A stretch of 64,000 nt of DNA, taken from Bacteriovoracia bacterium. Its GTDB lineage: Bacteria > Bdellovibrionota > UBA1018 > CAIPTA01. The position numbers were made by a program, and so were the translations under genes. The stretch is taken from the NCBI GenBank assembly GCA_050246755.1, contig JBFWVL010000006.1, positions 1 through 64,000 on the forward strand, read 5' to 3'. How positions within the stretch are numbered: the first letter of the stretch is position 1; each line of letters begins with the position of its first letter. Below, in pieces: positions 21,820-49,925 of the stretch. The notes beneath the pieces are model-generated. The model did no database searches and was not told the DNA's origin. It saw only the letters and a list, made by a program, of their open reading frames with translations.

Positions 21820-21826
21820 ACCAACC

Positions 21827-26762: not shown

Positions 26763-26963
26763 ATGAGTAAAGTGCGCGGCGTTCGCTTCTCAGAAAGCGA
26801 AGAGAAGCTGATCGAAGAATTTCTTCGAAAAAACACACTGCTAGATTTTTCTACTCTAGCAAAAGTCGCCATCCTGGAATTTATCAGGAAGCCGCAGATC
26901 AACCTCACACCTGTCGGAAGCCCCTCACGAAAGGAGAATCGAGATGTCAGACCAATTTCGTGA
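26763..26963 (+). CDS. Small RHH-like regulator
   Basis: GAGGG RBS; VRGVRFSESEEKLIEEF...FSTLAKVAILEFI. Confidence 0.55.
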   Translation: MSKVRGVRFSESEEKLIEEFLRKNTLLDFSTLAKVAILEFIRKPQINLTPVGSPSRKENRDVRPIS

Positions 26964-28730: not shown

Positions 28731-31700
28731 GCTGCGCGCCTGCTTCTTTTCTTTGATTTCACATCAGCGAAAAGTTTTTTATCAAGTGACTGTAGCTCCG
28801 ATTTCAGAGTGGCCTCATCTTCGTCTTTTGCGAGTTTGGCAAGAGTTCTGAACGCATCGTCAAGCACCCCGCCAAAAGACAGCATTTCAAGCTCAATCGG
28901 GATTGTCTTGAGAACTGTCGGTTTTACGTTTACATCGTTATTCACTTGCTTGAACCAGCCATTGACGGAAGGCAAATTCAAATAGACCGACAAAGCCTTT
29001 GCTGAAACCTTTCGTTTGAACTCTTCTCTCGGCTTTAAAACCGACAAACCGACGGACGAAACAGAATCATCGTCAATGAACGCAGCAACCAATCTTTGTT
29101 CCAGCTTCGGATTGCGAATTCGCTGAACTACAACGCGGTCACCCTCATGGAATTTTGGGTCACGGGGAGCCGAAAGGTTGGGACCATACTGAATGAATTC
29201 TTCATTACGCCAACTCTTGTGCATCATCCGTATGTCATTTCCGTAAAGATAAGGACGATATTTCTTATTTAATTTCTTAGTAGAGTTATAGATTTTGTCC
29301 TCAAGCATGGACCTCGTCTGCTTCGGAGTTCCTTTTCCAACCTCATATGCTTGAGCGCCCGCCGTAGCCTCAAAAAAATCATCGACAGTAGATGAAAGGG
29401 CATTCAGAGGGCTATTGGAGCGGACAATAAACCTCGTCGTTTTGTCCGCACGGCTCTCATCAACATCAATCGGAGATAGCTCCACCGAAGCAAGATCGGA
29501 TGGCGTCTGCGAAATTCCGATCTTTAGCGACGGTCTGGCGCCTCGGATTGAATTCGCAATAAGCAATAGGGTGCTGACATTAGCATCCTCAAAAACATCG
29601 TACTTATTGAGAATAAAATCCGCATCCACATTCGACTCGATGAAGGCTTCGCGCAATTTCTTGAAGCAATCTAACGAAAGAATTGTGTCCGGTATGATGA
29701 ATCCAATTCTGTATTTTTCGATATTGCAGAACTTTAGCCACTCATCGTCCATCAACATCCGTTCAATGAAGACATGGAATGAATCATGCTTTTGGTGGAG
29801 TGTCTTGAAGCGCGCAAAAAGTTGACCAACTTGATCTTCTGAAAAATCAATCCCGTAGGGTGGATTTCCAACCACGGCCGTGACGCCATTTGGATCGAGA
29901 AGGTGGCGAACTTTTCCTAAAACATCTTTAGTAAAAATTGTGTCTGCGACGACGAGTTGATCGTCCAACTCTTCAAGGGGCTTGCCTGGCATTGCGCTTT
30001 CCAACCACAGGCTCAACTTTGCCAGCTTTGCAGCTCGTGGATTCACGTCGATTCCAACGAGACAAAGGGACAAAAGCCGTCGCTTTGCTTCTAGGACTGA
30101 TAAAGAAATGTCGTCATTTTTTTCCTTCGAAAGAGCATCAACGTATTTCGTAGCCAAGTAGTTTAGAGCGCCACTCAGAAAGTGTCCCGAGCCCATTGCG
30201 GGGTCTACAACGCGCAGCTTCTCAATGGATTTTGCGGATTCACCACTGACTAGTGGCTCCAGCACTCTCCGCACAACCTCCTGAACGATATAGTCCGGCG
30301 TGTAGTAGCTTCCGGTCGCCTTCCGGTCTTTGTTGTCTGGGGAGAAAAATAGGTCTCCCTTTCTAACCTTGGGAACATCCAGCTTGCGAACTTTCTCGCT
30401 GGACAAGTTGGCTGACTGCCATTGTTTCTTTGCAAAGATCATGTCTTCTGAAGCGACATCGAGCTTAAACTCCAGGAAGCTCTCGTAGATTGATCCGAGC
30501 TGTCGAGGGGAAAAGAAGTTATAGGGAATTTGCTGGTACTTTTTCCCTTTGATGTCCGACTTGCTGTAGCCCAGCTCGAACAAAATGTTCACCATATCTC
30601 TGTTAGACAGCTTAAGTTCCTTCGCAAATTTCCATTCCTCTTTAGAAAAAATTGTTTCTCGAAACCCTTTTATCTCGAATCCAGAAAAGTCGCTGCCTGT
30701 GCCTTGTTGAACAATTTTTGTGAGGCCGAGAAGGCGATCATAGAGTTCGGTGCCATCCGTGGAAAACTGGAAGTCCTTGCTAAAGACTCTTTTTAGCATT
30801 GGGAGATTCAGGCCATCCGACTCCTTCTCAAGATCAAAATACTCCAACTTGTCAATTACGTTGGAGAGAGAAATCTTTCTGTATTCCGGTGACTGCTTCA
30901 GGGGCAAGACGTTCCTGGCCTCGCAATGCTTTATAAATAGTATGTTGAATAGATGGCTTTCTGCGATATTTCTGATTTTCGCAATATCGGAAGTGACCCC
31001 TGACTTCTTGGCGCATTTATAAAGTCCATTACAGGCAACCGACATCGCCTGCACAAACCGATCTTTTAGATCTTCTTCGACCCGTAAAACATACTTTTTG
31101 CTATACTCCAAAAGATCATCTACGAAGCGGCGATCACCGCTTTCGCTATAAAGGGCCTCTTTTGAAAAAATATGGAAGAAGTACTTGGCGTTCTCGATGA
31201 AAAGTTCGTAGTCGCTTGTTGTTCTGTCGAGCCCAGCGTTAACGTGCATGAGTAGCCGACCAAGGTTAAACTGAAAGTAGCGCTTATAGCTGCCAGATGA
31301 CAGCTCAAGATTATACAGCCTCCACGTTTTTCCGTCGGTTAGAATTCCGAAATCCTTTTTCAATATCTCCATGTATTTCAAGCATTGCTCGTCGAAATCC
31401 ATTCCTCGGTTTGCATCATCCTTGGAGGACTTATCCGAACGATTTTTGTCTTCACTCTGTGCCTGCCTCGCATCTTCGATTCGGTCCCAATACTTCGCTT
31501 CGATGGGCAGAATCACTAACTGCCTGGCTTCTTCAATTTTCGCATCGCCCCTTTTTCTCTCGATATATTTTAACTCTTTTGGGTCATTAACAATAATGAG
31601 ATCCGGCTTATACGTTTTGCTTTGCCCACTTTCGCTAACGCTAAACGGCTCATCCTCGGCCCAAGGCTCCTGCGAGGGAGAGCAGTTGTCATTATATCCA

Positions 31701-32005
31701 AGCAACGCAAGGACTGGCTTGATAAAGCGATTAATGGTGTTTCGCTCGCTCCAACTGTCAAAATCTTCGCCCCGAAGCTCCTCGCATAGATTTCGAAACC
31801 CATTGCAGAACTGGTAGAATGGACCGGCTTCATCGAATTCCCATTTTTCTTTGTACTTAACGGGAACATCATTCAAAAGAAATACTTCGTTAAATAACGA
31901 TGTCTGCCAAAATGGATTATTTCGATTGGCTGGAATCAACTCCAACTGCGCCGGAGTATCTTCAATTTTTTTCATTCGCTTTGTTGCCTGTGCCATGCCG
32001 ATCAA
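28727..32005 (-). CDS. Type IIG/Eco57I-like fused restriction endonuclease-N6-adenine methyltransferase
   Basis: KPD...EAK nuclease motif, GILTDGKTWRLY, LGSIYE, GSYYTP, DPAMGSGHF, GNPPY, TaqI_C-like TRD. Confidence 0.88.
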   Translation of the reverse strand: MIGMAQATKRMKKIEDTPAQLELIPANRNNPFWQTSLFNEVFLLNDVPVKYKEKWEFDEAGPFYQFCNGFRNLCEELRGEDFDSWSERNTINRFIKPVLALLGYNDNCSPSQEPWAEDEPFSVSESGQSKTYKPDLIIVNDPKELKYIERKRGDAKIEEARQLVILPIEAKYWDRIEDARQAQSEDKNRSDKSSKDDANRGMDFDEQCLKYMEILKKDFGILTDGKTWRLYNLELSSGSYKRYFQFNLGRLLMHVNAGLDRTTSDYELFIENAKYFFHIFSKEALYSESGDRRFVDDLLEYSKKYVLRVEEDLKDRFVQAMSVACNGLYKCAKKSGVTSDIAKIRNIAESHLFNILFIKHCEARNVLPLKQSPEYRKISLSNVIDKLEYFDLEKESDGLNLPMLKRVFSKDFQFSTDGTELYDRLLGLTKIVQQGTGSDFSGFEIKGFRETIFSKEEWKFAKELKLSNRDMVNILFELGYSKSDIKGKKYQQIPYNFFSPRQLGSIYESFLEFKLDVASEDMIFAKKQWQSANLSSEKVRKLDVPKVRKGDLFFSPDNKDRKATGSYYTPDYIVQEVVRRVLEPLVSGESAKSIEKLRVVDPAMGSGHFLSGALNYLATKYVDALSKEKNDDISLSVLEAKRRLLSLCLVGIDVNPRAAKLAKLSLWLESAMPGKPLEELDDQLVVADTIFTKDVLGKVRHLLDPNGVTAVVGNPPYGIDFSEDQVGQLFARFKTLHQKHDSFHVFIERMLMDDEWLKFCNIEKYRIGFIIPDTILSLDCFKKLREAFIESNVDADFILNKYDVFEDANVSTLLLIANSIRGARPSLKIGISQTPSDLASVELSPIDVDESRADKTTRFIVRSNSPLNALSSTVDDFFEATAGAQAYEVGKGTPKQTRSMLEDKIYNSTKKLNKKYRPYLYGNDIRMMHKSWRNEEFIQYGPNLSAPRDPKFHEGDRVVVQRIRNPKLEQRLVAAFIDDDSVSSVGLSVLKPREEFKRKVSAKALSVYLNLPSVNGWFKQVNNDVNVKPTVLKTIPIELEMLSFGGVLDDAFRTLAKLAKDEDEATLKSELQSLDKKLFADVKSKKRSRRAA

Positions 32006-32235
32006 ACTTCCTTCACGCGAGAAACTTGAGCGAACGTCACGTCGTCAACGAGTTGAAATTTGACCTTCTTTTTATCCTTCAGCGATTTCCATTTTCTTCC
32101 GGAATCAATGGCAGAATAGTGGACGTAATACGACTGGCCACTGTCAGCCTTAATCATCCCTTCACCGGATTTTTCATCGAACCAATGAACGGTCCCGAGC
32201 TGCCAGGCTTGTGAAATGGTTTTTGAGCGTGCCAT
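32002..32235 (-). CDS. Cold-shock domain protein (divergent)
   Basis: GTVHWFDEKSGEGMI, YYVHYSAI, KSLKD..KVKF; GGAGG RBS. Confidence 0.85.
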   Translation of the reverse strand: MARSKTISQAWQLGTVHWFDEKSGEGMIKADSGQSYYVHYSAIDSGRKWKSLKDKKKVKFQLVDDVTFAQVSRVKEV

Positions 32236-32526
32236 GAACTTCCTCCGCTGAAGTCTCTTGTTGCGTCGTCGCTGCGGACTCCTAGCGGTCGCCGGAGCCG
32301 CTGGCTACCTTGCCTGCGACGGTCAAAGAACTTTTCGGTCGTATTCGAAAAACCTAAAGAACGAAGCCCGTTTACACGGCGGAACTGGTCAAACGAAGGA
32401 CTCCCCCGGAGGGCAAGGCCCAGCGGCAAAACAAAGCCCTATCCGGTGGCGGATATTTGCTGGACCAAGAAATGGGAAGACTATGACGGGAACCCGTTGG
32501 AGCCCTCGACTGACGGCCAATGTGGG

Positions 32527-33360
32527 CTAGGCCCTGGAGACTCCCAGCTCTCGCCGGTACTTGAAGAACGTCCGTCGCTTCAGGCCGGTGGACTCCTCGA
32601 AAATTCGAACCTGATCTTTGACGGCTAGGCCGCGCCGGGAAAGCTGGCGAACCAGTTTCTTCGGATCTTCAGGAGCGGCAACAACCATTCGCTCCAGCAA
32701 ATCGCGCCACTGCTCCCCATTGTGCTGGGCCAGCTCGTACCCCATCTGCAAGGTTCGATAGCTGATTTGATGGACCGATGTGGCGCTGATCTTCTGACTG
32801 AGGAATCGCGCAACTTCCGTGGCCTTCTGCGTGTCCGAGTACAGATCCTGGTTCTCGGCAGCTTTCTCCAGCAACGCCTTTGCGCCTGTCGGATCAATAT
32901 TGATTCTATATGGGAAGCTCCGCGACTTCACCGCCTCGGCATCCGCTGTCGCGGGAAATGAGTTGCACACTATGACCAGCTTGCCCTCGAAGGTGAACTC
33001 TTCGGCGGACGCCTTGCCGCTGGTAGAGCCCCAGCGAATCTTGCGCTGCTTTCCCTGCCCCCATGTGGCGGCTTTCAGAATCGCCATTGAACTTTGGTCG
33101 CTGAACAGTCCCGCGCAGTCGTCGATAACGACGGTGTTGCGGGCATTGTCGTGCAGGAAATTGAAGAGATGCAGCGGTGTTGAGTACGATCCGAGATGCA
33201 CTCCGGTCACGCCCGCCGCTCGCAGAGCATCCTCGACAGCCGTAGTCTTGCCCCATCCGGGCGGCCCCTCGATAATCAGGGCGTGCATCCGCTCGCTGGC
33301 TCGGATCGTGAGGAGCAGCCGTTTGATGGCTTCAATGTGATTCAGCGACTCATTCTTCAT
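32527..33360 (-). CDS. AAA-type ATPase with C-terminal HTH
   Basis: GPPGWGKT, VVIDD, IVCN, AVKSRS arginine finger; FEESTGLKRRTFFKYRRE. Confidence 0.75.
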   Translation of the reverse strand: MKNESLNHIEAIKRLLLTIRASERMHALIIEGPPGWGKTTAVEDALRAAGVTGVHLGSYSTPLHLFNFLHDNARNTVVIDDCAGLFSDQSSMAILKAATWGQGKQRKIRWGSTSGKASAEEFTFEGKLVIVCNSFPATADAEAVKSRSFPYRINIDPTGAKALLEKAAENQDLYSDTQKATEVARFLSQKISATSVHQISYRTLQMGYELAQHNGEQWRDLLERMVVAAPEDPKKLVRQLSRRGLAVKDQVRIFEESTGLKRRTFFKYRRELGVSRA

Positions 33361-33393
33361 AAAGCCTCACACATAGGGGGGAAGCGCACGGAA

Positions 33394-33449
33394 AGTGCAA
33401 GATGCACTAGCCTGAGAGCAAAAGTCCACGAAAAAGTGCGCCTTGCACT
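33394..33449. promoter_or_regulatory. Two AGTGC-N5-GCACT palindromes upstream of the AAA-HTH gene
   Basis: AGTGC-AAGAT-GCACT (33394-33408) and AGTGC-GCCTT-GCACT (33435-33449). Confidence 0.5.
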
Positions 33450-33458
33450 TCCTGCGCA

Positions 33459-34847
33459 TTAGGCCCCGGTTCCTTGGCCGAGCTTCGCCGCCTTCGACTG
33501 ATTCAGCAGGTATTGCAGGTGTTGGGGCGTCACGCCGAGCCTGCGGGCCGCTTCGATCTTGCTGCCGGAGGCTTCGATGGTTTCCAGGATGTAGGACATT
33601 TTGGCCTTGGACTTCTGCTCTTCCCATTCGGAAAGCCTCATGCTTCCGGGGGAAAATGAATCTTGATCCGAATAGAGCGCCAGGTCCAAGTCTTCAGGAC
33701 GCACCAGGGGGCCTTCCGTTTGGACCAAATGCTTCTCAACGACCGCCGCCAGCTCACGGACATTGCCGGGCCAGGGGTACTTTTTTAACACGTCCACCGC
33801 TCGGCTCTGGAAATAGCGATTTGTCTGATACCGCTTGTTGTAAATTTCCGAGAAGAACGCCACAAGCGGCTCGATATCTTCTACGCGCTCACGCAGCGGC
33901 GGGATCTCAATTTCCGCCACCTTGATCCGGTACATGAGGTCTTCGCGGAAGAGCCCATGTTTCATGAGGTCGTCGATCTTTTTGTGGCTTGCGCAAACGA
34001 TTCGCACGTCGATTTTCCGTGAGAGCCTTGCTCCAATCGGCTCGACCGTTCTTTCTTGCAGGACGCGCAGGAGCTTTGCCTGAAGATCCAAGGAAAGATC
34101 CCCGATCTCATCAAGAAAAATAGTCCCTTTGTCGGCCTGAATGAACTTGCCATCCTGATCCGCGATGGCTCCGGTGAACGAACCCTTTTTGTGTCCGAAC
34201 AAGGTGGATTCAAGCAGCTCCTTAGCGATGGCCGCACAGTTGATGGCAACGAACGGCCCTTTTGCGCGTGGTGAAAGATCGTGGAGAGCGCGGGCGACAA
34301 GCTCTTTTCCGGTGCCGGACTCGCCGTGAATGAGCACGGAAACGTCGCGGGCCTCCGCGATTTTTTTGGTCTTGATAGCGACTTCCGCCATGACCTGGGA
34401 CTGCCCCTCCATCTTGACGGCCGCCAAGTGGCGGCGATTCTCGTTCTTATTCGTCGTTGGGCGGATGGTTTTCAGCAACTCGTCATACCTGTTGCAGTAC
34501 ATCCGCACTTTGCTCAAAAGATCCTGCGGCTCCGAGCTTTTTTCGATGAACTCCACGGCTCCGGCCTGGTAGCTCAGTTTCAAAGCGTCACGGCTGTAAT
34601 CGGCAGAGTACATGGCGACTTGCTGAACTGGATTGATCTCACGAATCAGCTTCGCCACAAAATCGCCAGAGGACTGCGGCATCTGAAAATCCAGCAACAC
34701 GAGGGCAAATTCCTCTTTTTTGACCAGCATCAGCGCCTCATCGGAGGTTTGGGCCGTGCTGACCTCGTAGCCGTTGATTTCCAAATAGCCCTTAGTGGCT
34801 TTGATGTTCTTCAGGTCGTCATCGACCATGAGGATCTTATACGGCAT
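33459..34847 (-). CDS. Sigma-54-dependent response regulator (NtrC/AtoC family)
   Basis: REC domain (VDDD, LDFQMP), GESGTGKE, GSFTGA loop, FLDEIG, FREDLMYR, WPGNVREL, Fis-type HTH. Confidence 0.93.
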   Translation of the reverse strand: MPYKILMVDDDLKNIKATKGYLEINGYEVSTAQTSDEALMLVKKEEFALVLLDFQMPQSSGDFVAKLIREINPVQQVAMYSADYSRDALKLSYQAGAVEFIEKSSEPQDLLSKVRMYCNRYDELLKTIRPTTNKNENRRHLAAVKMEGQSQVMAEVAIKTKKIAEARDVSVLIHGESGTGKELVARALHDLSPRAKGPFVAINCAAIAKELLESTLFGHKKGSFTGAIADQDGKFIQADKGTIFLDEIGDLSLDLQAKLLRVLQERTVEPIGARLSRKIDVRIVCASHKKIDDLMKHGLFREDLMYRIKVAEIEIPPLRERVEDIEPLVAFFSEIYNKRYQTNRYFQSRAVDVLKKYPWPGNVRELAAVVEKHLVQTEGPLVRPEDLDLALYSDQDSFSPGSMRLSEWEEQKSKAKMSYILETIEASGSKIEAARRLGVTPQHLQYLLNQSKAAKLGQGTGA

Positions 34848-36234
34848 GAGTGCTGCTCCTTTCCGTTCCCTCGGAGGGAACTGATACCGTGATCGTGGTC
34901 CCTTGACCCTGTCGGCTTTCGACATGGACCGAGCCATTTCTCTGCTCGCAGATATGCTTAACGATAAAGAGGCCAAGCCCTGTGCCGGTGGCGGGTTTGG
35001 ACGTGAAATCCGGCTCGAAAATCCGATCATACAAATGCGCCGGGATGCCGCACCCCCGGTCGGCAACTGAGAGAACGGAGGATTCCCCCTGTTTTTCGAC
35101 CTTGACGGAAATCTCCGCGCCCGTGTTTGAGGCATCCGCCGCATTTTCGACAAGGTTCTGAAGAATGCGAGCCACTTCCGAACGAGAAAGCGGAGCCAGG
35201 ACACCGGCCGCGGCTGATATATTCAACCGGATATTTTTGTTCTTGATGGATTCATTTTTCTGAAGAGACTCAATCTCCAGTCGAGCGGCATCGGAAAGAT
35301 CCAGGAGATTTTCTCTCTGATCGTTCTCGTTGAGAGTTTTCACCTGGGAGGCAATCATGGAAACTTTGCGAAGTGAGGTCTTAATTTCGTTAAGCGTGTC
35401 ACTGGCCGAGGGATCGACTTTCATCTGCTGATCCAGCGTCGCAAGATATAGTTGAACCTGAGAAACGGGGCTCAATAAGTCGTGCGCGATCCCGCGAAGT
35501 ACCAGCATCTTGGCCTTCTCGCTGGCCTGGCTTTCATAGCGTTCAATCTGGGCGGTCAGCCCCTCTATGGCATCTCGGAGCGGCGCAAGCTCTAAAAAAG
35601 GAGCCAGTGAAAGAGGGCTTTGGCTTTTGGGATTGATCCGCAGCCGCTTCGCCCATTCTTCGACTTCGGAAGCGAGCTTTTTTGACGAGACGCGGGCAAC
35701 GCTTCCGAGGCCAAGCAACATGGCCGCATAGCCAAAAGAGAAAATGAAGAAAACGATGACGACAAAGAGCCAGTCAATTTGCACCGATTTTGAAAGATAG
35801 AGGTAGCCGAAGAGGTTTTCCTTCTTCTCGTCAAAATAGATCGGGAAGAAAATTCGCCCAGGGCCGGTATAGCCATCGAAGCAAGTGAATCCCACGGTGC
35901 CACATGGACGAATAGTGTTTGGTATGATCGAGGTGGAGCGGTAAATATGCTGACGGTCTTGATTGAGAATCAAAGCGTCTTCGCCTTCCCCCAATCCGAG
36001 AACATTGTGGATTTGGTTTTCCACCGCCTTGATGTCACCTTCCAAGATCCGCGAGCGAAAGGCTTCAGCGGCAGCAGTGGCCGATTTCTGAAGATCGGTC
36101 GCCATTTTGTAGCGAGACAGAAAGAACGTGGCCGTCACGGAAATCAGAGCCATCGCTGTAAACCCGATAACGGATTGACGGAGGATGCTCCTTTCCAGGT
36201 AAGACTTGATCGTGGTGACGGCCCTTTTCTTCAC
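34837..36234 (-). CDS. Membrane sensor histidine kinase
   Basis: Two TM helices around a periplasmic domain; AHDLLSP H-box, NLVENA, DRGCGI, FEPDFTSK, GTGLGL. Confidence 0.93.
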   Translation of the reverse strand: MKKRAVTTIKSYLERSILRQSVIGFTAMALISVTATFFLSRYKMATDLQKSATAAAEAFRSRILEGDIKAVENQIHNVLGLGEGEDALILNQDRQHIYRSTSIIPNTIRPCGTVGFTCFDGYTGPGRIFFPIYFDEKKENLFGYLYLSKSVQIDWLFVVIVFFIFSFGYAAMLLGLGSVARVSSKKLASEVEEWAKRLRINPKSQSPLSLAPFLELAPLRDAIEGLTAQIERYESQASEKAKMLVLRGIAHDLLSPVSQVQLYLATLDQQMKVDPSASDTLNEIKTSLRKVSMIASQVKTLNENDQRENLLDLSDAARLEIESLQKNESIKNKNIRLNISAAAGVLAPLSRSEVARILQNLVENAADASNTGAEISVKVEKQGESSVLSVADRGCGIPAHLYDRIFEPDFTSKPATGTGLGLFIVKHICEQRNGSVHVESRQGQGTTITVSVPSEGTERSSTHAV

Positions 36235-37721
36235 TTGAACCTGACTTTCGAGAAGGCAACGGTTTCATCCGTCGTCGGCACTTGGGAAAGATCAATTCCT
36301 TCCTTAGCGATGACGATGGTCGAGTAGTGGAAAATCGGTAGCAAAGATCCTTCTCGGGTGGCTTCCGTGAAGATGCGGCGATACTCTAGGTTTCGTCCCA
36401 GGTGATCGGGGTTCAAACGGGCTTTCTTAACTCTAGCCTGGAAGTCTTTCGATCCCTCGCCCGCGTTGGGAATGATCGGTGGGGTTAGGCCGAAGAAGAA
36501 ACCCATCGCGCCTTCCACGTTCGGATCATTGACCGGCAGTGAACCAGCGACGAGATCATAGTTTCCTGCGGCTCGGGTCTTCTCAAAATCTGCAAGTGAA
36601 ACGAGCTTAAACGTGGGCTCAATGCCGGTCAGCTCCTTGAGCGTGCTGCGGATATTCCGTTGAAGGATCTCACTCATTCGGGACTCGGCGGCGAGGATTT
36701 CCAGCGGCTTCTTGCGAAAGCCTTCCGGCAACTTTGCCTCCGATCCCGCTTTTTGAAACTCGGGATCGAAAAGGATATACCCTTGCGGGAAAAACTGTTC
36801 TGTCGAATTGAAGCCAGCGAGCCCTTTGGTGATCGCGGAGCGGTCGAGGCGCTGGTTCAGATATTGGAACAGCAATCGGCCATTTTCGTTGGTCAGCCGA
36901 GGGCCAGGCGCAAAGAAGAATACTTTGTCCAGATTGCGGTGCCAGACTTCATACTTTGCTTTCTTAAATCTCTCGCTCGTTTCCACGGGAAGCAATGAAG
37001 ACGACCCCAGGAGGTTCGCCCAAGAATCTTTAAGAAAAGATTCTTGGATTTCCTCTCCGGCGGGTGGGCGGCGGATATGCACGGACTTCGGCATATTGGG
37101 CTGCGTGAAGATCCAGAACTTATTCAGCGATAGTTCGATCTCCGCGTTGGAAACGGATTTTAAGGCGAAGGGGCCGGTGGTTGTTGCCAGATCCAGCGAG
37201 TCGCCCTCTTTCACTCGAACGATACCGTACATCGGTTCCGTGAGCTTCTTCACGACTCCGCTTGTGGCCGCCGCGACATTCAACTTGAACACCAGCGTCT
37301 TGGCGTCCTTCGCTTCAATCGCGGTTACATAGTCGTAGAGGGTCTTCAGGGAATCGCCGTGGACTCGTTTGGCGCGGAGCAGGCTTTTTACAGCCTGCTC
37401 CGCCGTGACTGCGCTTCCGTCGGACCATTTGGAAGCCGCTCCGATCTTGAACGTGATCTCTTTTTCTCCGGTAACGCTCCATGATTCGGCAAGGCCGGAG
37501 ACAAGCTCTCTCGTCTTGCTCCAGCCGACAAGTGTTGAGCCGAGGGCGTAAGATAAATCGAGATCCACCAAGGTTCGCACGTTCGCGGGATCAACCGGGA
37601 GTGTGAACGGCATATAGGTTTTTACGGTGTTCTGGTTCTCTTTTGACATGACATTCTCCCCCGGCAAGATACCGGCTACAACCAACAAGAGCGAAATGCA
37701 GAGAGGCTTCCAGGCTTTCAT
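36231..37721 (-). CDS. Family-5 (OppA/DppA-like) periplasmic solute-binding protein without permease genes
   Basis: Signal peptide, VDP, GLAESW..ITFKI..KWSDGSAVTA, TTGPF, LPIFH. Confidence 0.85.
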   Translation of the reverse strand: MKAWKPLCISLLLVVAGILPGENVMSKENQNTVKTYMPFTLPVDPANVRTLVDLDLSYALGSTLVGWSKTRELVSGLAESWSVTGEKEITFKIGAASKWSDGSAVTAEQAVKSLLRAKRVHGDSLKTLYDYVTAIEAKDAKTLVFKLNVAAATSGVVKKLTEPMYGIVRVKEGDSLDLATTTGPFALKSVSNAEIELSLNKFWIFTQPNMPKSVHIRRPPAGEEIQESFLKDSWANLLGSSSLLPVETSERFKKAKYEVWHRNLDKVFFFAPGPRLTNENGRLLFQYLNQRLDRSAITKGLAGFNSTEQFFPQGYILFDPEFQKAGSEAKLPEGFRKKPLEILAAESRMSEILQRNIRSTLKELTGIEPTFKLVSLADFEKTRAAGNYDLVAGSLPVNDPNVEGAMGFFFGLTPPIIPNAGEGSKDFQARVKKARLNPDHLGRNLEYRRIFTEATREGSLLPIFHYSTIVIAKEGIDLSQVPTTDETVAFSKVRFK

Positions 37722-38024
37722 TTAGAAGGGAGCCGTCCAGCAACTCGGTTCGCTTACGGTTTCCAGTCCAGCGGAGTTTCTTCCCCGGAGAACCAGATTT
37801 CCATTTTCATCCACGCCAAGAATAACCGATTCCCAGTCGATACGCACGGTCCTCTCTAAGTCGCGGATCAATTGTTCGTAGCGAGCGCGCTCATCCGTGG
37901 AAAGTCGTTCCAAGGGAGTGAACTTCCCGTTCGGAATGATCGGGACTTGCGCTTTGGCCGCATGGCCCATCCCCAGCAAAGCAGCGGCGACCAAGAGCCC
38001 CAACTTAGGTTTTGCGTTCTTCAT
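37722..38024 (-). CDS. 100-aa exported protein, candidate RiPP precursor
   Basis: GGGGG RBS; Sec-type signal MKNAKPKLGLLVAAALLGMGHAAKA; C-terminus LETVSEPSCWTAPF with the only Cys; sits between ycaO and the SBP gene. Confidence 0.7.
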   Translation of the reverse strand: MKNAKPKLGLLVAAALLGMGHAAKAQVPIIPNGKFTPLERLSTDERARYEQLIRDLERTVRIDWESVILGVDENGNLVLRGRNSAGLETVSEPSCWTAPF

Positions 38025-38038
38025 ATACTTTCCCCCTT

Positions 38039-39067
38039 TCAGGAAACGATATGCGGTTGAGTATTTAGAGTCCGTTCCTTCATGGAGACAGAAAAATTCC
38101 TCTTCTCTGCCTGTTTCAAAACTTTTTGAATGTCGGTGCTTCCCCATGCCAGTTCAAAAGCTCTTTCGTGAGTGGCAAATCCAGCGATGACCGGATGCTC
38201 CAGGGCTTGGTGAAACTTGAAATCGGACGCTTCCGACCGGAGAAGGTCGAGTCGTTCGTTCCAGGATTGCTCTGCTTCAAGCCAGGATGTTGCTGGGCCA
38301 AACATCCATGCGGGAAATGGCTCATGATGGGCGTAGTAAACCGCGTGAGCACCCGGCTGCACTCGAACTCTTTCTTCACGCCGAAGAAGGATTTGCGAGT
38401 CATTCCAAAATGAGCGGCGCAGGGCATGGTGGGCGGCCCGGCAGGTTTCGGCGATGGCGGATTCGATGCTGTCCTGCAATTCCGTCTTCGTCGAGTGGCC
38501 GGATACTCCGTAACCGGCGGCATTCAGAAAGAGACAAGTCACCGAGGGGCCAAGACCCTCGGTGGAAATCAGGAGCTTCATTTCGGGAAACTCGGACTGC
38601 GACAACTCGTTCCGCACCCAATGCAAGATGGACTGCGGCCATTCGCTCGGTGTGATTTCGAGAAACGGAACCGACAGATACCATTGAGCAAGAACGGCGT
38701 CGCGTTCCACCAGCTCAAGAATCGCTCCGGTTCTTGCTTGCGGAAGGGTTTCGTGCGCCGCCCAGCCATTGCTCGTTCCTAGATTTTCGTGGTTGAGTCC
38801 CTTGTGCCAGCGCATCAGGCTCGCACGTTCGATCAACTCCATGATCGCTTTCGTCATGGCAAGATCCTCTGTCTTGGCCTCTCCGCAAGCCCGAACCTCC
38901 ATGCCATCCAGGGAGGCTTCGATATTGATGATGAACTTGGAGAATCGGAAGCCTGCTGGCCGAGTGCCGCGAGAAACGCGCACGTCTCTAAACCCGAATG
39001 GAAGCGACTCCCACCAGGGAGCGGAGGCACCGCTTTGAGAATCTGGAATGGCGTTATCTAATCGCAT
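38039..39067 (-). CDS. ycaO: Stand-alone, compact YcaO-family protein
   Basis: KAIMELIER and TSNGWAAH...AILELVERDA ATP/Mg-binding motifs; C-terminal QPHIVS resembles the Pro-His tail of YcaOs. Confidence 0.85.
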   Translation of the reverse strand: MRLDNAIPDSQSGASAPWWESLPFGFRDVRVSRGTRPAGFRFSKFIINIEASLDGMEVRACGEAKTEDLAMTKAIMELIERASLMRWHKGLNHENLGTSNGWAAHETLPQARTGAILELVERDAVLAQWYLSVPFLEITPSEWPQSILHWVRNELSQSEFPEMKLLISTEGLGPSVTCLFLNAAGYGVSGHSTKTELQDSIESAIAETCRAAHHALRRSFWNDSQILLRREERVRVQPGAHAVYYAHHEPFPAWMFGPATSWLEAEQSWNERLDLLRSEASDFKFHQALEHPVIAGFATHERAFELAWGSTDIQKVLKQAEKRNFSVSMKERTLNTQPHIVS

Positions 39068-39127
39068 GAAATACCAAGCCTTCTTGTTGATAGACCGCCT
39101 TGTTTCAGGCGCTCGGGTTTCCCTATG

Positions 39128-39144
39128 AGCAAGGACGGGGCCAA
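39128..39144 (-). promoter_or_regulatory. Sigma-54 -24/-12 promoter for the ycaO operon
   Basis: Minus strand TTGGCCCCGTCCTTGCT = GG-N10-GC, about 60 bp upstream of the ycaO ATG. Confidence 0.7.
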
Positions 39145-39227
39145 GTCGTAAAAGTGCTGAAAACCTGGGTTTTACGGCGAAATCCTGCATTTTTGTTGAT
39201 CTGCGGGTGCAGTTGGTGGTGCGGAAA

Positions 39228-39515
39228 TTCAGGATTTCTGAATCGGCCTGTGCGATGCGCGGTCGCCTGTAAACAATAACTGCGTGATATGTTTTACGTT
39301 TTCCACACGAAAGGCCCTGGTGCCACAAATTCAGGAACTCTGAATCGACATATAATTTTTATAGGCCGAGTGTCCGCGAGCGCACATGAGGCTGTTGTTT
39401 CGATGACAAATTCAGGATTTCTGAAGGGCTTCAGGTTTCCTGAATGTCATCGCAAGCCGTTGATTTCAAACTCGTAGTTTATTGTTTATCCAATCCGCTA
39501 TTCAGATTTTCTGAA
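39228..39515. promoter_or_regulatory. Five TTCAG-N5-CTGAA palindromes (enhancer/operator array) plus an IHF-consensus site
   Basis: Copies at 39228, 39330, 39411, 39430 and 39501; AATCAACGGCTTG on the minus strand at 39453-39465. Confidence 0.75.
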
Positions 39516-39666
39516 CTGAATCGGCGCTTTTCGAGAGCGCGAAAAATCCGATTTGTCTTTTTGCTTCTGAGACTTAGGTCACTTCAGCATTTTTCTGGCA
39601 TCGCCTTGCACTTTTAGAAGGTGAAAGGCCGCTCATTCCAGCGGGCCTGTTGGAAAGGAAAACGAA

Positions 39667-39891
39667 ATGTCCAAGTCCTATCTCACCCAATGCCCTCGCT
39701 GCGGCACTCGAAGCTACGAACAGCTTCACACCCATGGTCACTGCATCGAATGCCTCTACTCAAACGACCTCGCTCCACAGAGCGACAAGCGCGACTTCCT
39801 CACTCTGCGGGAAGCTGAGGCGCTGATCGAGCCGTCCGAGATTCATCAAATGCGAAGAGATCAAAAAAAGATTTCGGGAGCGGCGTCGTGA
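39667..39891 (+). CDS. Small Zn-ribbon protein
   Basis: AAGGA RBS; CPRC...CIEC. Confidence 0.65.
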   Translation: MSKSYLTQCPRCGTRSYEQLHTHGHCIECLYSNDLAPQSDKRDFLTLREAEALIEPSEIHQMRRDQKKISGAAS

Positions 39892-40077
39892 TCTGCCGAA
39901 GCACGAAATCCGCCATCAGAAATTTCTGGATCTGGCTCTGCCGCCAATGGGCCAAAGCCGAGGAAGTTCAGCAGCGAATTGATGCTGAACGCCTCAAGGC
40001 CCAAGAGCGTTACGGCTCCGATTTTCCGTCTCGCTGGATCTAAGGAGTCCAAACACAAACGAACGAATGGGGGTTCA

Positions 40078-40314
40078 ATGAAAAATTCCGAAACGACTTT
40101 GCGAAAGAACGACTGCGGGCGCTGGGAGGTCGGCACCCACGAGCTGACTTCGGGAAGTGTCCTTGAAATTCAGATTGACGGCCACTGGATCAGCGGCGTC
40201 ATCGAACACTGGCACGACAACTATTACTGGTTCAGCCGCCGCGACGGTGTTCCCGTCGTGCTTCACTCCGGCATTTATGCTCGTCTCCCAGACTCGAACG
40301 AAAGGAGGTTCTGA
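40078..40314 (+). CDS. DUF5348-like small beta protein
   Basis: GRWEV..ELTSGSVLEIQIDGHWISGVIE..YYW...LHSG. Confidence 0.65.
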   Translation: MKNSETTLRKNDCGRWEVGTHELTSGSVLEIQIDGHWISGVIEHWHDNYYWFSRRDGVPVVLHSGIYARLPDSNERRF

Positions 40315-40376
40315 AAACGTAGTTGAGAATCAATGAGGGGCTTTGAGGGTTCATTGTTTCAAATACGGAGTTAAAT

Positions 40377-40730
40377 TTGTCAGAAAATAAAATCGAACAA
40401 AAGCAGAAATCGGAAAGGCTGAATCTCTACTGGCTGTGCGGCCAGACGGGACGAAAGCATCCCGCCGGGGTCGCATTCTTCAACGAAGAACAAGGCGACT
40501 ATCGGCTGAAGATCGACGTGATGCCCGACGATAAGACGTTTTTCCTGAAAACGATCTCGTCGAGCGATGACGTGACTTACTACCGCGTGGAGGCGGCCGT
40601 GAAAAAGGCCGGGCGCGTGGTCCACAGGGCGGAAGTCGGTTCCGGCTACGCCAAGAAGGAAGATCCCACCATCTACATGGACATCGGCCCGTTCTCGCGG
40701 ACCCTTGTTCTTGAGCAACAACAGGCTTGA
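40377..40730 (+). CDS. Hypothetical protein leading the transfer operon
   Basis: GGAG RBS, TTG start, beta-rich sequence, coupled to the pilin gene. Confidence 0.6.
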   Translation: MSENKIEQKQKSERLNLYWLCGQTGRKHPAGVAFFNEEQGDYRLKIDVMPDDKTFFLKTISSSDDVTYYRVEAAVKKAGRVVHRAEVGSGYAKKEDPTIYMDIGPFSRTLVLEQQQA

Positions 40731-41032
40731 AGCAGGATCGTTTTCTGATGGTTCTCTTCGCGGGCTTTGCCGTTCTTATGGTGCTTTGCCCGGAACTCGC
40801 GCTCGCGCAGTTCTCGGGTGGTGCCCTGGAAAGCAAAGTCAACGGAGTGACGAGCGGGCTTATCAACTTTCTCTTGCCCGCCGCGAGCGTGATCGGACTG
40901 ATTTACAGTGCGATCCTCGCCGCGACCGGCGACGCCTCGGCGAAAGCCAGGATGACCACCATCGCAATCTGTAGCGTGGTGGGAATGCTGGCTCCTCTCA
41001 TCATTCGCTGGCTGCAAGGGATGGTGAACTGA
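40727..41032 (+). CDS. virB2: VirB2/TrbC-like pilin
   Basis: Signal ending PELALA-Q, two hydrophobic helices, first in the VirB2-3-4 order. Confidence 0.75.
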   Translation: MKQDRFLMVLFAGFAVLMVLCPELALAQFSGGALESKVNGVTSGLINFLLPAASVIGLIYSAILAATGDASAKARMTTIAICSVVGMLAPLIIRWLQGMVN

Positions 41033-41316
41033 TGCTCAAGGCATCGACGGTTCACCGAAATCTGGATGCGAAGTTTAAGATCGGCGGCGTCGAAGCCGCC
41101 GATCTGTTGGCCGTTCTACTCACGGGTGCCGTGATGAATCTGATCTTTGGGCGGCTGTCCATTGGCCCCATTTTCATCTTCGGCATTCCGGGTCTTCTTT
41201 TCTGCGCTCTCTACTTTGGGAAGCGCGGAAAACCGGAGGGCTATCTTATGCACGCACTCAAGTTTTTTATTTCATCCGGCGAACTCAGAGCCGGTGAAAT
41301 CGAGGATTCCGTCTGA
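41032..41316 (+). CDS. virB3: VirB3-like membrane protein
   Basis: VHRNLDAKFKIGG, two TM helices, directly before virB4. Confidence 0.7.
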   Translation: MLKASTVHRNLDAKFKIGGVEAADLLAVLLTGAVMNLIFGRLSIGPIFIFGIPGLLFCALYFGKRGKPEGYLMHALKFFISSGELRAGEIEDSV

Positions 41317-43742
41317 AGAAATCTCCCATTGCGGGGAAAGTGCCGTTCTTCCGGTTCGACGATCATCTGATGGTCTATCAAGACGGCTCGATGGGCGTCG
41401 GTTTCAGGCTCGGCGGATTCGATAGCAGTTGCGCCTCGGTGGACTCGATCAATGCGTTTTGCCAGAAGATCGAAAACTTTCTCGCCGGGCTCTCCGAGGG
41501 CCTGCGAATCCAGGTTTTCTACCGGCTGACGAACAACGCCTATGACGTGGTGGAGCAACACCGGGCGGTTTCGAGTGACAGTGCGCTTATCTATCAACCG
41601 ATCCGCAGCGCCCGCATCGCGTTTTTTGAAGAGAAGCTGGAATCTGGCCGGTTTTTTATGCCGGAAATCTATCTTTTCGTGCGCAGCCAGCCGCTTCAGC
41701 TCAAAAGGCGCAAGTTTTTCGAGAAGAAAGAGCGGTTTGAAGGGTTCCCGCCGGAGCAGTTTCGCGCCCATCAGGAACGGTTTGCCATTCTCGTCTCGCA
41801 GGTGGAGGCGGCGCTGCGCTCGGCGGCGATTGCGCCCAGCCGTCTGTTAAAGACGGATTGGTTCAATCTCTGCTTCTCGTACTTCAACATGGAGCGGGCC
41901 GAGATCATCGGTTGCCCCAGCTTGAGGGAGCCGACGGACGCGCTCGCTCCGAGCCTTGGTGCGCAACTGGCGCTCACGGACATTTCGGTTTCCGAGAAGC
42001 ACCTGAAGATTGGTGGGCTGTTCTTCCGCGTCGTCACGATGGGGATTTTACCGGAGGGCCAGACGGTCGCCTCCATGATCGAAAGCCTGATGAAACTGCC
42101 ATTCCACTTCTGGATGTCGCAGAACATTCACACGCTGGAACAGCGCAAAGAGATCGAAAAGCTCGAACTCATGCGCCGGATCGCAAGCTCGATGGCCTCG
42201 GGAAGCAAGAACGTCTCCGACATCGAAAGCGAATCGAAGCTGTCGAACCTCGAAGACCTGCTCCGCGAGGTCATGACCGGATCGGAGCGGCTGGTGTCTT
42301 CCGACCTGAACGTGATCTTTTGGGCGGAATCCCAAGAGGAGCTGGAGCAAAAGACGGAAGAAATCTTGCGGGCGTTCCGCGCCACCGGCCAGGCCGAAGG
42401 TCTGGTCGAGACGTTCGGCCTGGAGGACGCCTTTTTTAAGGCCGCGCCCAGCGTGTGCGAAGGGTTCCGCCATAAGCGCATGAAGACGAGCAATTGCGCT
42501 CATCTGATGCCCTTATACGCGGCCTGGATGGGCAATAAGCGGCCGGTGGTGCTGCTCACGAACCGCGAGGGAGCGCCCTTTGCCATCGACCCGTTCGCAC
42601 CGGAATTACCCAACTGGAACGGTCTGATTTTCGGCGGTAGCGGCTCAGGGAAGTCTTACTCGATTTCCCAGATGATGCTCCAGTTTTCCGGCCAGAAGTA
42701 TGGCGGCAAGCCGCCGAAGATCGTGTGGATCGACAACGGGGCCTCCAGCGAAAAGCTGATCGAGGTCATGGACGGCGAGTTCATCGACCTGAACCTCAAT
42801 TCGGGCATCCGCCTGAATGTGTTCGACCTTGAGGCCGGAGAAGCGAAGCCCACCGCCACCAAGATCAAACTGATCCTGGGGTGCCTTGAGCTGATCCTGA
42901 AGGACGACGACAAGGTGGGGCTCCCGAAGCGGGACAAGGGCCTGCTCGAAGAGGCCATTTTTTCCTGCTACCGCAAAACCGGTGAGCGCATTCCGCAGCT
43001 CTCCGATCTGAGGGAGATCCTGCGCGAGCATCCGGTGACGGATATGCGCAAATACGCCGACATCCTGTTCTCGTGGACTGGAGAAACGGCGTTCGGTCGG
43101 ATGCTCGATGGCCCCAGCAACGTGAAGCTCACCAAGGACTTGGTGTCCATCGAGATCAAGGGGCTGGAGAACTACCGGGATCTGAAGGACATCTTTCTGC
43201 TGCTGCTCACTTCGTACATCAAGGACGAAGCGGCCAGCGACTTGGCCCGCCCTTATCTGCTGATCGTGGATGAAGCACAACGGCTGTTCAAGTCGGGCTC
43301 TCCGATGGGAAGGGAGTTCGCCATAGATTCCTTTCGCGTTTTTCGTAAGTACAACGCCGGAATCTGGTGCATCTCGCAGAACTATAAAGATTTTTTGTCG
43401 GACCCGGATCTGGCAGATTCTCTCATGCCTAACACCACGTTCGTTTTCATCCTGCGGCAGCGGAAGATCGACTGGAACGACTTCAAGGAAACCTTCGACT
43501 TCGACGAAGCGGTTGTGGAGGCGGCGAAAAGTCTGGAGATCGTCAAGCGCAAGTTCTCCGAGTTTTTGCTGATCCAGGACGAAAATATCGCAGTTTTGCG
43601 TCTGGAATCTGACCCACTCAGTTACCGCATCTGTACCACCGACGGAAACGAAAAATCGGAGGAGAAGGCTCTTCGGGAAAGATATCCCGACCGCCCTCTC
43701 GTGGAAATTTTAAGTGAGCTTGCTCAAGGAGATTCGCATTAA
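41313..43742 (+). CDS. virB4: VirB4/TraC conjugative ATPase (start CTG 41313 or GTG 41340)
   Basis: GGSGSGKS, IDNGAS, LNVFD, IVDEA, FRKYN...SQ. Confidence 0.92.
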   Translation: MKKSPIAGKVPFFRFDDHLMVYQDGSMGVGFRLGGFDSSCASVDSINAFCQKIENFLAGLSEGLRIQVFYRLTNNAYDVVEQHRAVSSDSALIYQPIRSARIAFFEEKLESGRFFMPEIYLFVRSQPLQLKRRKFFEKKERFEGFPPEQFRAHQERFAILVSQVEAALRSAAIAPSRLLKTDWFNLCFSYFNMERAEIIGCPSLREPTDALAPSLGAQLALTDISVSEKHLKIGGLFFRVVTMGILPEGQTVASMIESLMKLPFHFWMSQNIHTLEQRKEIEKLELMRRIASSMASGSKNVSDIESESKLSNLEDLLREVMTGSERLVSSDLNVIFWAESQEELEQKTEEILRAFRATGQAEGLVETFGLEDAFFKAAPSVCEGFRHKRMKTSNCAHLMPLYAAWMGNKRPVVLLTNREGAPFAIDPFAPELPNWNGLIFGGSGSGKSYSISQMMLQFSGQKYGGKPPKIVWIDNGASSEKLIEVMDGEFIDLNLNSGIRLNVFDLEAGEAKPTATKIKLILGCLELILKDDDKVGLPKRDKGLLEEAIFSCYRKTGERIPQLSDLREILREHPVTDMRKYADILFSWTGETAFGRMLDGPSNVKLTKDLVSIEIKGLENYRDLKDIFLLLLTSYIKDEAASDLARPYLLIVDEAQRLFKSGSPMGREFAIDSFRVFRKYNAGIWCISQNYKDFLSDPDLADSLMPNTTFVFILRQRKIDWNDFKETFDFDEAVVEAAKSLEIVKRKFSEFLLIQDENIAVLRLESDPLSYRICTTDGNEKSEEKALRERYPDRPLVEILSELAQGDSH

Positions 43743-44439
43743 ACGAACGAAGACTTGCCTGGTGGCGGCCCTCATTATGGCCTGCGCGTTGCGCCCAGCG
43801 CCCGCGCTGGCGTTCACCGATGGTTCGGGATGGGCTGCGGTTGGATACCTCATTAAAATTCTGGAGGAAAACTACCGGCGGTATGTGCAGCTCAAGGCCA
43901 TGATCGACACGGCGAACGGTCACTATGACTATATCCGGGCGCTCAATCGCGGCCTGGACAATTCCATCGGTCTTTTGGAGGCGCTGCCCATCAAGGACGA
44001 GAAGGTTCTGGCGGAACTGAAGAACTTCAAGGAAGCGGTCGCCCGCGTGGAACTGCTCTATGGAAAAATTCCGCAGAGCCCGGATGAAGCCCTGCATCTC
44101 CTGCACGATCAATCGGTGGCGGAAAGCCTGCGGATGGCAAACTCCTTCAAGGATTTCTCCGACACGCAGGAGAAAAATTCGCTGTTGATCGCCGCCCAAG
44201 CGCGGGAGGCATCGCCCAAGGGCGCAGCCCGTATGCAGGCCGAGACAAGCGCGGAGATCCTGCGCACTCTCTCGCAGTTGATTCGCCTTAACACGCAGAT
44301 GCTCAAGCTCCAAAGCGAGCAGATCGCAATGGCGAATAAGTCCGCGAAAGACGAAGTGGCGGGATTTCAGAAGATCAACCAAGACCTTGGAAGCGGATTT
44401 TCCAAGTTCAAGCCGGACATGAAATTCATCGTTTTCTAA
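43714..44439 (+). CDS. VirB5/TrbJ-like exported helical protein
   Basis: Signal peptide (PALA), coiled-coil, located between virB4 and virB6. Confidence 0.6.
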   Translation: MSLLKEIRIKRTKTCLVAALIMACALRPAPALAFTDGSGWAAVGYLIKILEENYRRYVQLKAMIDTANGHYDYIRALNRGLDNSIGLLEALPIKDEKVLAELKNFKEAVARVELLYGKIPQSPDEALHLLHDQSVAESLRMANSFKDFSDTQEKNSLLIAAQAREASPKGAARMQAETSAEILRTLSQLIRLNTQMLKLQSEQIAMANKSAKDEVAGFQKINQDLGSGFSKFKPDMKFIVF

Positions 44440-49903: not shown

Positions 49904-49925
49904 GGGGTCAGTCGGACGACTAAGT

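Follow-up and report, generated by a model that had tools for sequence, protein, structure and literature searches.

The first ribosomally made peptides with post-translational modifications (RiPPs) reported to carry a Sec signal are the bufferins, the BufA1 and BufA2 products of MNIO/DUF692 modification, which are reported to be large, protein-like molecules with a Cys-derived heterocycle that reach the periplasm through the general Sec pathway. The present work deals with a 64,000-nucleotide stretch of the genome of a Bacteriovoracia bacterium (contig JBFWVL010000006.1, positions 1 to 64,000; hereafter the window), in which a protein of 100 amino acids (aa), predicted to share these traits, is encoded in a five-gene cassette together with a stand-alone YcaO enzyme, an orphan periplasmic solute-binding protein (SBP), a histidine kinase and a σ54-dependent response regulator. 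The modification would here be the work of an ATP-dependent YcaO and not of an MNIO with its DUF2063 partner, the protein has one Cys near its C-terminus where the bufferins have 4-6, and the gene linkage is to the SBP, kinase and σ54 regulator on an integrative conjugative element (ICE) instead of to copper-stress genes. Neither DUF692/MNIO nor DUF2063 is found in the cassette, and the 100-residue protein, which we call the precursor in keeping with the role proposed for it, matches no Pfam family, DUF2282 included.

Among the YcaO systems, the NHLP-type precursors are reported to have a long structured N-terminal part recognised by the azoline-forming YcaO via protein-protein contacts, and a C-terminal core. 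The same division into a structured N-terminal part and a C-terminal core is predicted here, with the differences that the helix-plus-hairpin body is of no known family and that a Sec signal stands in front of it. Microcin B17 and the bottromycin enzyme BotC exemplify the linear azol(in)e peptides and the stand-alone YcaOs, respectively. In likeness to them, the core presents Ser/Thr-Cys adjoining Gly, Ala or Pro, the Gly-rich short forms of the precursor resemble microcin B17-type cores, and the YcaO stands alone, as BotC-type enzymes do, with no E1-like partner; unlike the linear azol(in)e systems, the cassette holds no dehydrogenase, dedicated exporter or immunity gene, and the precursor offers a single modification site. 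A further YcaO, MusD, is reported to have an ATP-dependent C-terminal peptidase activity; its structure (7u58) is among the fold matches of our enzyme, and here too the heterocyclisable residues are trailed by a brief C-terminal stretch, but MusD is a fused cyanobactin heterocyclase of ~780 residues (length 784). Full-text searches of the literature, supplements excluded, returned no description of a YcaO with a Sec-signal precursor or of the five-gene cassette.

In Vibrio, the periplasmic binding protein LuxP works with the membrane kinase LuxQ and the σ54-dependent regulator LuxO, and the nisin NisK/NisR and agr systems are autoinduced RiPP circuits. The operon described here likewise encodes a putative signal precursor, its maturation enzyme and a sensor, and appears to be self-activating; unlike LuxP/LuxQ/LuxO, its ligand would be a YcaO-modified ribosomal product and not autoinducer 2 (AI-2), its binding protein is an SBP_bac_5 member, and the operon has no gene for a phosphotransfer protein. 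In Gram-positive bacteria, conjugation is known to come under the control of peptides, as in the Rap-Phr systems of pLS20 and ICEBs1 and with the pCF10 pheromones. These, too, are peptide signalling modules on conjugative elements, but their peptides are unmodified, enter the cell through Opp and are detected in the cytoplasm, whereas periplasmic two-component sensing would apply to the cassette studied here.

A small protein with a predicted Sec signal encoded next to a stand-alone YcaO

We consider it likely, on in silico grounds, that the 100-aa protein is the substrate of the adjoining stand-alone YcaO. Its gene (37722..38024, minus strand, stop codon 37722-37724 included), taken from the list of open reading frames (ORFs) and its translation, is the second of five tightly packed minus-strand genes that form an operon in the order ycaO, precursor, SBP_bac_5, histidine kinase and σ54 response regulator. 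A strong ribosome-binding site, AGGGGG, can be read in front of it (38032..38037, minus strand), with 8 nt to the ATG and at a distance of 14 nt from the ycaO stop, and its stop codon abuts the ATG of the downstream SBP gene in a TAAATG junction. The existence of 12 close homologues, of 28 relatives of a paralogue and of dozens of more distant members indicates that this ORF is more than a product of chance.

Residues 1-25 (37950..38024, minus strand) would form a Sec-type signal peptide with cleavage proposed after AKA. The basic N-region, the hydrophobic core and the AKA-Q site noticed in an earlier note on this DNA are all present: three Lys stand among the first 10 residues, the best 10-residue Kyte-Doolittle window is 2.82, and the residues at -3 and -1 are small, Ala25 being invariant in 13 of 13 close sequences. 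By these heuristics, which are not those of a SignalP-type predictor, the protein has the positive n-region, hydrophobic h-region and small -3/-1 residues of a type I signal peptide. In the wider family, the N-region is net-positive in 94 of 96 members and the hydrophobic core reaches at least 1.8 in 92 of them.

The body (37782..37898, minus strand) comprises, in the AlphaFold2 model, a helix at residues 43-59 and a beta-hairpin at 67-81 with strands 67-71 and 77-81, which bears out the helix and hairpin-like segment read earlier from the letters alone. The model, built on a 25-row alignment, has a mean predicted local distance difference test (pLDDT) score of 64, with blocks of 74-84 across residues 31-80; the score falls below 50 at the signal peptide and at residues 97-100, and the tail is disordered. 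Cys95, the sole Cys of the protein, lies in this tail, as had been claimed. Against Pfam and NCBIfam the precursor has no family at E <= 0.01; at E <= 1, the 25 members of its family matched 17 families, none of them NHLP or Nif11. The matches, for instance to US22 and SUKH-3 (best E 0.0049), are scattered and sub-threshold across the 25 members and were discarded as noise. A Foldseek search of the precursor model against the PDB gave no match at E <= 0.001, and the ESM Atlas yielded no usable feature match, its structural neighbours all having TM < 0.5 by query. No sequencing run was listed as containing RNA; four that were guessed to be RNA, three of them flagged 'probably DNA' and one 'RNA is a guess', contain only short contig pieces (on the gene of the SBP, on the initial ~30 bases of the precursor 3' end and on the promoter region) and are uninformative on expression.

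The C-terminal motif is the element common to the family

The proposed modification site is the motif P93-S94-C95 (37740..37748, minus strand), invariant in 13 of 13 close sequences and followed by the tail WTAPF, residues 96-100 (37725..37739, minus strand), which is variable in length and in column entropy across the family. The 12 close homologues are 59-96% identical to the precursor; E-P-S-C is nearly invariant among them, and the hairpin IDWESV..GVDENG is conserved as well. More distant members of ~95-110 aa number dozens at the 50% cluster level. The same genome encodes on contig C1 a paralogous precursor of ~21% identity, which ends in GQPSCVGGL and has 28 relatives of its own. Across the two subfamilies thus defined, the invariant columns are M1, K7, L41, R46, G75, P93 and S94, followed by Cys or Ser.

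A family profile was searched against 1.84 billion cluster representatives and gave 1273 matches at E <= 0.001. Many of these are long repeat proteins, which were rejected as family members because they match at the hairpin positions only (~65-90), in many stretches; P0163 and P0164, for example, belong to a group of 1000-3500 aa in which 5-24 repeats resemble the hairpin motif IAVDxxGxVYV and nothing else of the precursor, and we take these proteins to be beta-propeller-like. The motif was counted in 96 sequences of at most 140 aa, 41 from the close and paralogue homologue sets and 55 from the profile search, a few rows being near-duplicates; this set excludes every long protein as well as P0038, a fragment of 64 aa. 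P-[ST]-[CST] is present in 92 of these 96 long forms, as PSC in 68, PSS in 11, PTC in 8, PST in 4 and PTS in 1, and is followed by 1-18 residues across the family; in 69 of the 92, this tail is 3-5 residues long. The members P0175, P0194 and P0209, three proteins of 131-135 aa, hold the hairpin-plus-P-S-C unit twice and resemble multi-core RiPP precursors.

Column entropy amounts to 0.10 bits in the motif region of subfamily 1 and 0.73 bits in that of subfamily 2. The corresponding values are 0.51 bits (the second least variable region) and 0.36 bits for the hairpin, and 1.07 and 2.23 bits for the tail past the motif. The pairing of a conserved body with an unconserved tail, which the earlier note regarded as telling against its own reading, does not hold for the motif, since EPSC is the least variable region of all (0.10 bits); variability sets in past P-S-C, where it reaches 2.23 bits in subfamily 2.

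The clade of the YcaO itself, which comprises at least 185 clusters of ~335 aa, was surveyed in 401 sampled genomes of the phylum and is present in 20 of them, at 21 loci. The small-protein profile matches 8 of the 401 genomes, one doubtfully; a match in G260 (E 0.009) was treated as false, since it lies within a 1018-aa frame. The first precursor profile found, in the class, 1 genome of 127, the window's own. Such a patchy distribution is expected for mobile DNA. At 20 of the 21 loci, the ycaO stop is where a further ORF begins, 48-117 aa long and hydrophobic at its N-terminus, and in 18 of the 21 it has [ST][CS] among its last 10 residues. Together with the 92 of 96 long forms, these loci provide what the earlier note had proposed to look for, namely a PSC-like motif with variable flanks in the small ORFs that follow homologous YcaOs. 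Short forms of 48-60 aa, mostly Gly-rich and without the helix-hairpin body, are encoded at eleven loci, of which two are identical, and the nine that have the motif end in [ST]-[CS]-x(1-2); the body is therefore a lineage-specific addition in the window's branch. Judged by sequence, the C-terminal Ser/Thr-Cys site is the only element that long and short forms have in common, as a core peptide should look. The short forms at L023-L033, L036 and L039, most of which end in [ST]-C-x(1-2), also have a common (S/G)(S/T)(R/K)xL motif past the hydrophobic segment, and one intermediate form of 117 aa ends in HPTSI.

The YcaO enzyme and its predicted complex with the precursor

The YcaO (342 aa; 38039..39067, minus strand, start ATG at 39067) matches PF02624 with 60.6 bits against a cut-off of 25.7 and has 342-aa homologues at 100% coverage. 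Throughout an alignment of 32 sequences, residues E77, E80, R81, S99, G101, E118, E121, R122, D123 and E207 do not vary, and the ExxER, SNGxAAH and ExxERD motifs are conserved; the conserved acidic residues are presumably those that bind ATP and Mg. Its AlphaFold2 model (pLDDT 90.7) has 41 Foldseek matches in the PDB at E <= 0.001, all of them YcaO structures (TM 0.42-0.56, identity 12-16%), among which are archaeal thioamide-forming YcaOs, E. coli YcaO, LynD, McbD, MusD (7u58) and TruD. With this model, E-values of 7e-10 to 1e-5 are spread over all YcaO types and do not discriminate the chemistry. By sequence, a profile of the enzyme has 0 matches in the PDB at E <= 0.001, and the weak matches to TruD, LynD and MusD (E 0.0015-0.014) run only across the SNG..ELVERD stretch. 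With the SagD model, for which the cut-off is 219, the score is 58 bits, and the cassette, with only YcaO, SBP_bac_5, kinase and σ54-regulator domains, differs from the canonical azole-forming systems of thiazole/oxazole-modified microcins (TOMM) and linear azol(in)e-containing peptides (LAP). A tblastn search of a plasmid collection with the YcaO gave no match. The enzyme has no hydrophobic segment and should therefore act in the cytoplasm; this and its need for ATP agree with the inference, made in the earlier note, that modification precedes Sec export.

For the prediction of the complex, the YcaO, precursor residues 27-100, ATP and Mg were submitted with custom alignments. The ipSAE interface score is 0.85 versus 0.00 for the best of three controls; of solved complexes, 58 of 80 attain the former mark, and of mismatched pairs 2 of 110, although this calibration is approximate here, given the custom alignments and the riding ligands. 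The runs share at least 36% of their contacts, with a partner pLDDT of at least 78. In the model, the body of the precursor (residues 37-44, 46, 50, 64-65 and 68-69) would rest on YcaO residues 32-39, 157-159 and 210-222, and the tail (residues 87-98) would touch R81, S99, N100, E207, R210 and the C-terminal residues 341-342 of the enzyme, all of them invariant or nearly so in the YcaO alignment. The expected error is lowest at precursor residues 37-44 and 46, within the segment TPLERLSTDER (residues 36-46; 37887..37919, minus strand), which conservation and the modelled interface designate as the predicted YcaO-docking element. The interface includes L41 and R46, invariant across both precursor subfamilies. 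This coincidence of independently conserved residues, L41 and R46 on one side and the acidic motifs of the enzyme on the other, with the modelled interface lends the predicted binding in silico support. The model also fits the proposal that the body is the recognition element and the tail the core, since residues 37-46, 64-69 and 87-98 are those placed on the YcaO. No comparable complex is detectable in the PDB by sequence (0 matches at E <= 0.001).

A putative sensor module under a σ54-type promoter

Downstream of the precursor gene lies that of an SBP_bac_5 protein (496 aa; 36231..37721, minus strand; PF00496, 73.1 bits), which has its own N-terminal hydrophobic signal and weak NikA/OppA matches, and which is an orphan because the five cassette genes hold no permease or ABC ATPase. 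The sensor histidine kinase (465 aa; 34837..36234, minus strand) has HisKA and HATPase_c domains and hydrophobic segments at residues 21-40 and 145-180, that is, two transmembrane segments around a periplasmic loop of ~105 aa. The response regulator (462 aa; 33459..34847, minus strand, ATG at 34847, with a ribosome-binding site) carries Response_reg, Sigma54_activat and HTH_8 domains and is NtrC/LuxO-like, under the equivalog cut-offs, its match to the LuxO model having an E-value of 1.7e-80. The succession of SBP, kinase and regulator recurs at L018 and, by BLASTP, at eight of nine further loci, the ninth being ended by its contig; ORF sizes and termini point to the same order at L005, L006, L015-L017 and L019. 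At L049 (6633-8097, minus strand), the SBP gene is split into ORFs of 151 and 340 aa, possibly by a frameshift or an assembly error.

The operon is preceded by a σ54-type promoter, TGGCCCCGTCCTTGCT (39128..39143, minus strand), with canonical -24/-12 spacing and ~60 nt before the ycaO start. It was found with a relaxed form of the consensus, the strict form TGGCAC-N5-TTGC having 0 matches in the window. A σ54-type element precedes ycaO in 16 of 18 related loci (8 of 9 in each of two sets), and rpoN is present in the genome. No σ70-like site lies upstream of ycaO; the single one in 33300-40800 is on the other strand, within the kinase gene. Further upstream stand five TTCAG-N5-CTGAA palindromes (39228..39515), the proposed enhancer sites for the regulator, where 0.09 would be expected in the window. 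The whole genome of 3.55 Mb holds seven, five of them upstream of ycaO; the other two, single sites within ORFs, were rejected as members of a regulon. As this is the usual enhancer layout for a σ54 activator, the operon most probably activates itself. Two elements of the region resemble σ54 -24/-12 sites with a spacer 1-2 nt too short: TGGCAT-N4-TTGCA at 39596-39610 (plus strand), ~57 nt upstream of a divergent Zn-ribbon gene (39667-39891), and a paralogous TGGCAC-N3-TTGCA at the equivalent relative position of L006 (~6957-6970, minus strand).

A second cassette of the same genome (G000:C1:1319000-1325000; L003, L006, L040) comprises a paralogous YcaO, precursor, SBP, kinase and regulator, has the promoter TGGCATCGGTCTTGCT and adjoins another TraC/VirB4 gene. 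The half-sites are TTCAG/CTGAA in subfamily 1 and TTCAA-N5-TTGAA in subfamily 2, to which the second cassette belongs. The two cassettes thus differ in tail, binding protein and palindrome half-site, and from their sequences the two circuits look insulated from each other.

A model for the cassette and its alternatives

The explanation that we favour for the whole, in silico and with a confidence just above even, is that a Sec-exported, YcaO-modified precursor is the ligand of an autoinducing SBP-kinase-σ54 circuit. In the cytoplasm, the YcaO would dock on residues 37-46 and on the hairpin and would thread the disordered tail into its ATP site. With ATP, it would activate the backbone at P93-S94-C95, most likely generating a thiazoline from Cys95 and possibly an oxazoline from Ser94. 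The protein would then be exported by Sec and its signal peptide cut after AKA, and the modified C-terminus, either in the periplasm or outside after trimming, would be bound by the orphan SBP_bac_5 protein. The loaded SBP would signal via the histidine kinase to the σ54 response regulator, whose binding to the TTCAG-N5-CTGAA palindromes would fire the operon's own σ54 promoter in a positive feedback. We infer this circuit as a whole from the gene content and the DNA motifs. Since the cassette rides on an ICE beside type IV secretion genes, its product would probably be a private peptide signal for the element.

Azoline formation needs a side-chain nucleophile, thioamidation does not. The restriction of the third motif position to Cys, Ser or Thr, the three side-chain nucleophiles employed by YcaO cyclodehydratases, and of the second to Ser or Thr, therefore argues for azoline formation over thioamidation, and the absence of a dehydrogenase from the cassette leads us to expect an azoline and not an azole. 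The simplest reading of the cassette would take the modified C-terminus for the ligand, and the idea of a signal is supported by the peptide-sized products of the short forms, by the variable tails and by the presence of two orthogonal cassettes in one genome. By analogy, an SBP, a kinase with a periplasmic loop and a σ54 activator under a self-activated promoter would have the architecture of a ligand-sensing loop.

Several points weigh against this explanation, the support for which is in silico throughout. The best Foldseek matches of the YcaO are the archaeal thioamide-forming enzymes, and an E1-like or Ocin-ThiF partner and an FMN (flavin mononucleotide) dehydrogenase are absent from the five cassette genes by Pfam and NCBIfam. 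The motif P-[ST]-[CST] is missing from 4 of the 96 long forms, and 3 of the 21 loci are without the [ST][CS] ending, two having ORFs with Gly/Thr-rich ends and one a truncated ycaO. The tail after P-S-C is the most variable part of subfamily 2, which fits a role in specificity and equally a discarded follower or an absent constraint. The 74-residue mature long form is unlikely to cross the outer membrane unaided, so that a diffusible signal would require trimming. Finally, apart from the promoter of the operon itself, hardly any place has exact palindromes, which leaves the circuit without a known output gene.

The last two points feed the main rival, in which the modified protein is an output, namely a functional RiPP-protein of the periplasm, for example one with a metal-binding heterocycle tail like that of the bufferins, or an antimicrobial or anti-prey factor, and the SBP, kinase and regulator sense an unrelated ligand, such as prey-derived or cell-wall peptides, and turn its production on. 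The palindromes mark no output gene besides the operon itself, the mature product, at 74 aa, would be a large one if it had to diffuse as a signal, and SBP_bac_5 members bind many peptides as well as nickel complexes, in line with the weak NikA/OppA matches of this one; the bufferins offer a precedent for Sec-exported protein-like RiPPs working in the periplasm. Precursors of 48-60 aa would, however, yield products of ~15-30 residues, a typical signal size, and the five genes diverge together, with two orthogonal copies in one genome that have different operator half-sites. The cassette also lacks immunity and exporter genes, and the single Cys of the precursor leaves no multi-Cys metal site. 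We regard an effector as a minority possibility.

Another YcaO chemistry at the same site, either an ATP-dependent removal of the tail of the MusD type or a backbone thioamidation, appears less probable still. MusD (7u58) is among the fold matches and is reported to remove C-terminal residues through an acyl phosphate; the tail past P-S-C ranges from 1 to 18 residues; and the closest folds are those of the thioamide-forming archaeal YcaOs, which work without the usual partners. However, thioamidation leaves the restriction to Cys, Ser or Thr at the third motif position unexplained, and TfuA was not found in the genome, which is 95.7% complete. MusD, for its part, is reported to have accepted substrates that already bore azoles or thiazoles, and cleavage and cyclisation are not exclusive. 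It is highly improbable in our view that the YcaO acts on some other substrate and that the small protein, unmodified, serves the SBP or kinase as an accessory in the periplasm: the body is conserved and partly foldable, and YcaOs can modify ordinary proteins, a thioamide having been reported on the ribosomal protein uL16 (PMC13063428), but the adjacency to ycaO holds in 20 of 21 loci, even for body-less small ORFs, the [ST][CS] ending is the sole element common to long and short forms, and the complex model scores 0.85 versus 0.00 for the controls.

Returning to the exported, modified ligand of an autoinducing circuit, what is new relative to the earlier note is the SBP, kinase, σ54 and ICE context, which suggests a function. 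The in silico results support a conserved, probably self-activated YcaO-precursor-SBP-kinase-σ54 module on conjugative elements of the Bdellovibrionota. More tentatively, and with rather little confidence, we put forward a new class of Gram-negative peptide pheromones with a C-terminal Pro-Ser/Thr-Cys modified by a stand-alone YcaO, exported by Sec and read in the periplasm by an orphan SBP of the oligopeptide type that is coupled to a kinase and a σ54 regulator. The variable tail, the matching SBP and the matching operator would then make up the 'pherotype' of each conjugative element in the Bdellovibrionota. A bolder version would have the YcaO-made azoline act as a weak point that releases the short variable tail as the actual ligand.

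If the modification is real, the system would be the YcaO counterpart of the bufferins and a second enzyme class with RiPP-like substrates on the general Sec route, and the substrates of YcaO enzymes would extend to small secreted proteins. The constant linkage to SBP, kinase and σ54 regulator points to peptide cell-cell or self signalling in Gram-negative predatory-type bacteria, of which no description was found in the literature searched, and the location on a conjugative element suggests a control of gene transfer. Were the pheromone reading true, the element could tell which cells have acquired it before and choose the moment of its transfer accordingly. The compactness of the family and the simplicity of the motif make these proposals easy to test.

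The conjugative element and its surroundings

Divergent from the promoter region lie small genes and then a type IV secretion set (40727-52688), with TrbC/VirB2, a VirB3-like protein, TraC/VirB4 (41340-43742), TrbL/VirB6, CagX/VirB9 and TrbI/VirB10, an FtsK/SpoIIIE-type ATPase (47689-49173), a Replic_Relax-like protein (49163-49903) and a tyrosine integrase (51537-52688). The opposite flank (19399-33360, minus strand) carries restriction or defence-like cargo: an AAA_5 protein (19399-21819), a DUF2779 protein (21827-23845), a Z1-domain protein (23972-26608), a type IIG Eco57I/N6_Mtase enzyme (28727-32005) and an nSTAND3-like ATPase (32527-33360), all on the minus strand. With type IV secretion genes and an integrase on one side and defence cargo on the other, the cassette is placed within an ICE. 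In the fetched flanks, TraC/VirB4 was not seen at L018, L041, L043 and L046-L049, the contigs of L047-L049 being shorter than 20 kb; it is present at eight loci, by Pfam in the window, L006, L015, L016 and L019 and by BLASTP at L042, L044 and L045. Beyond the element, the plus strand encodes at 56215-62848 an AcrB-family resistance-nodulation-division (RND) efflux pump together with its outer-membrane factor, as well as a siderophore synthetase of the IucA/IucC-like kind.

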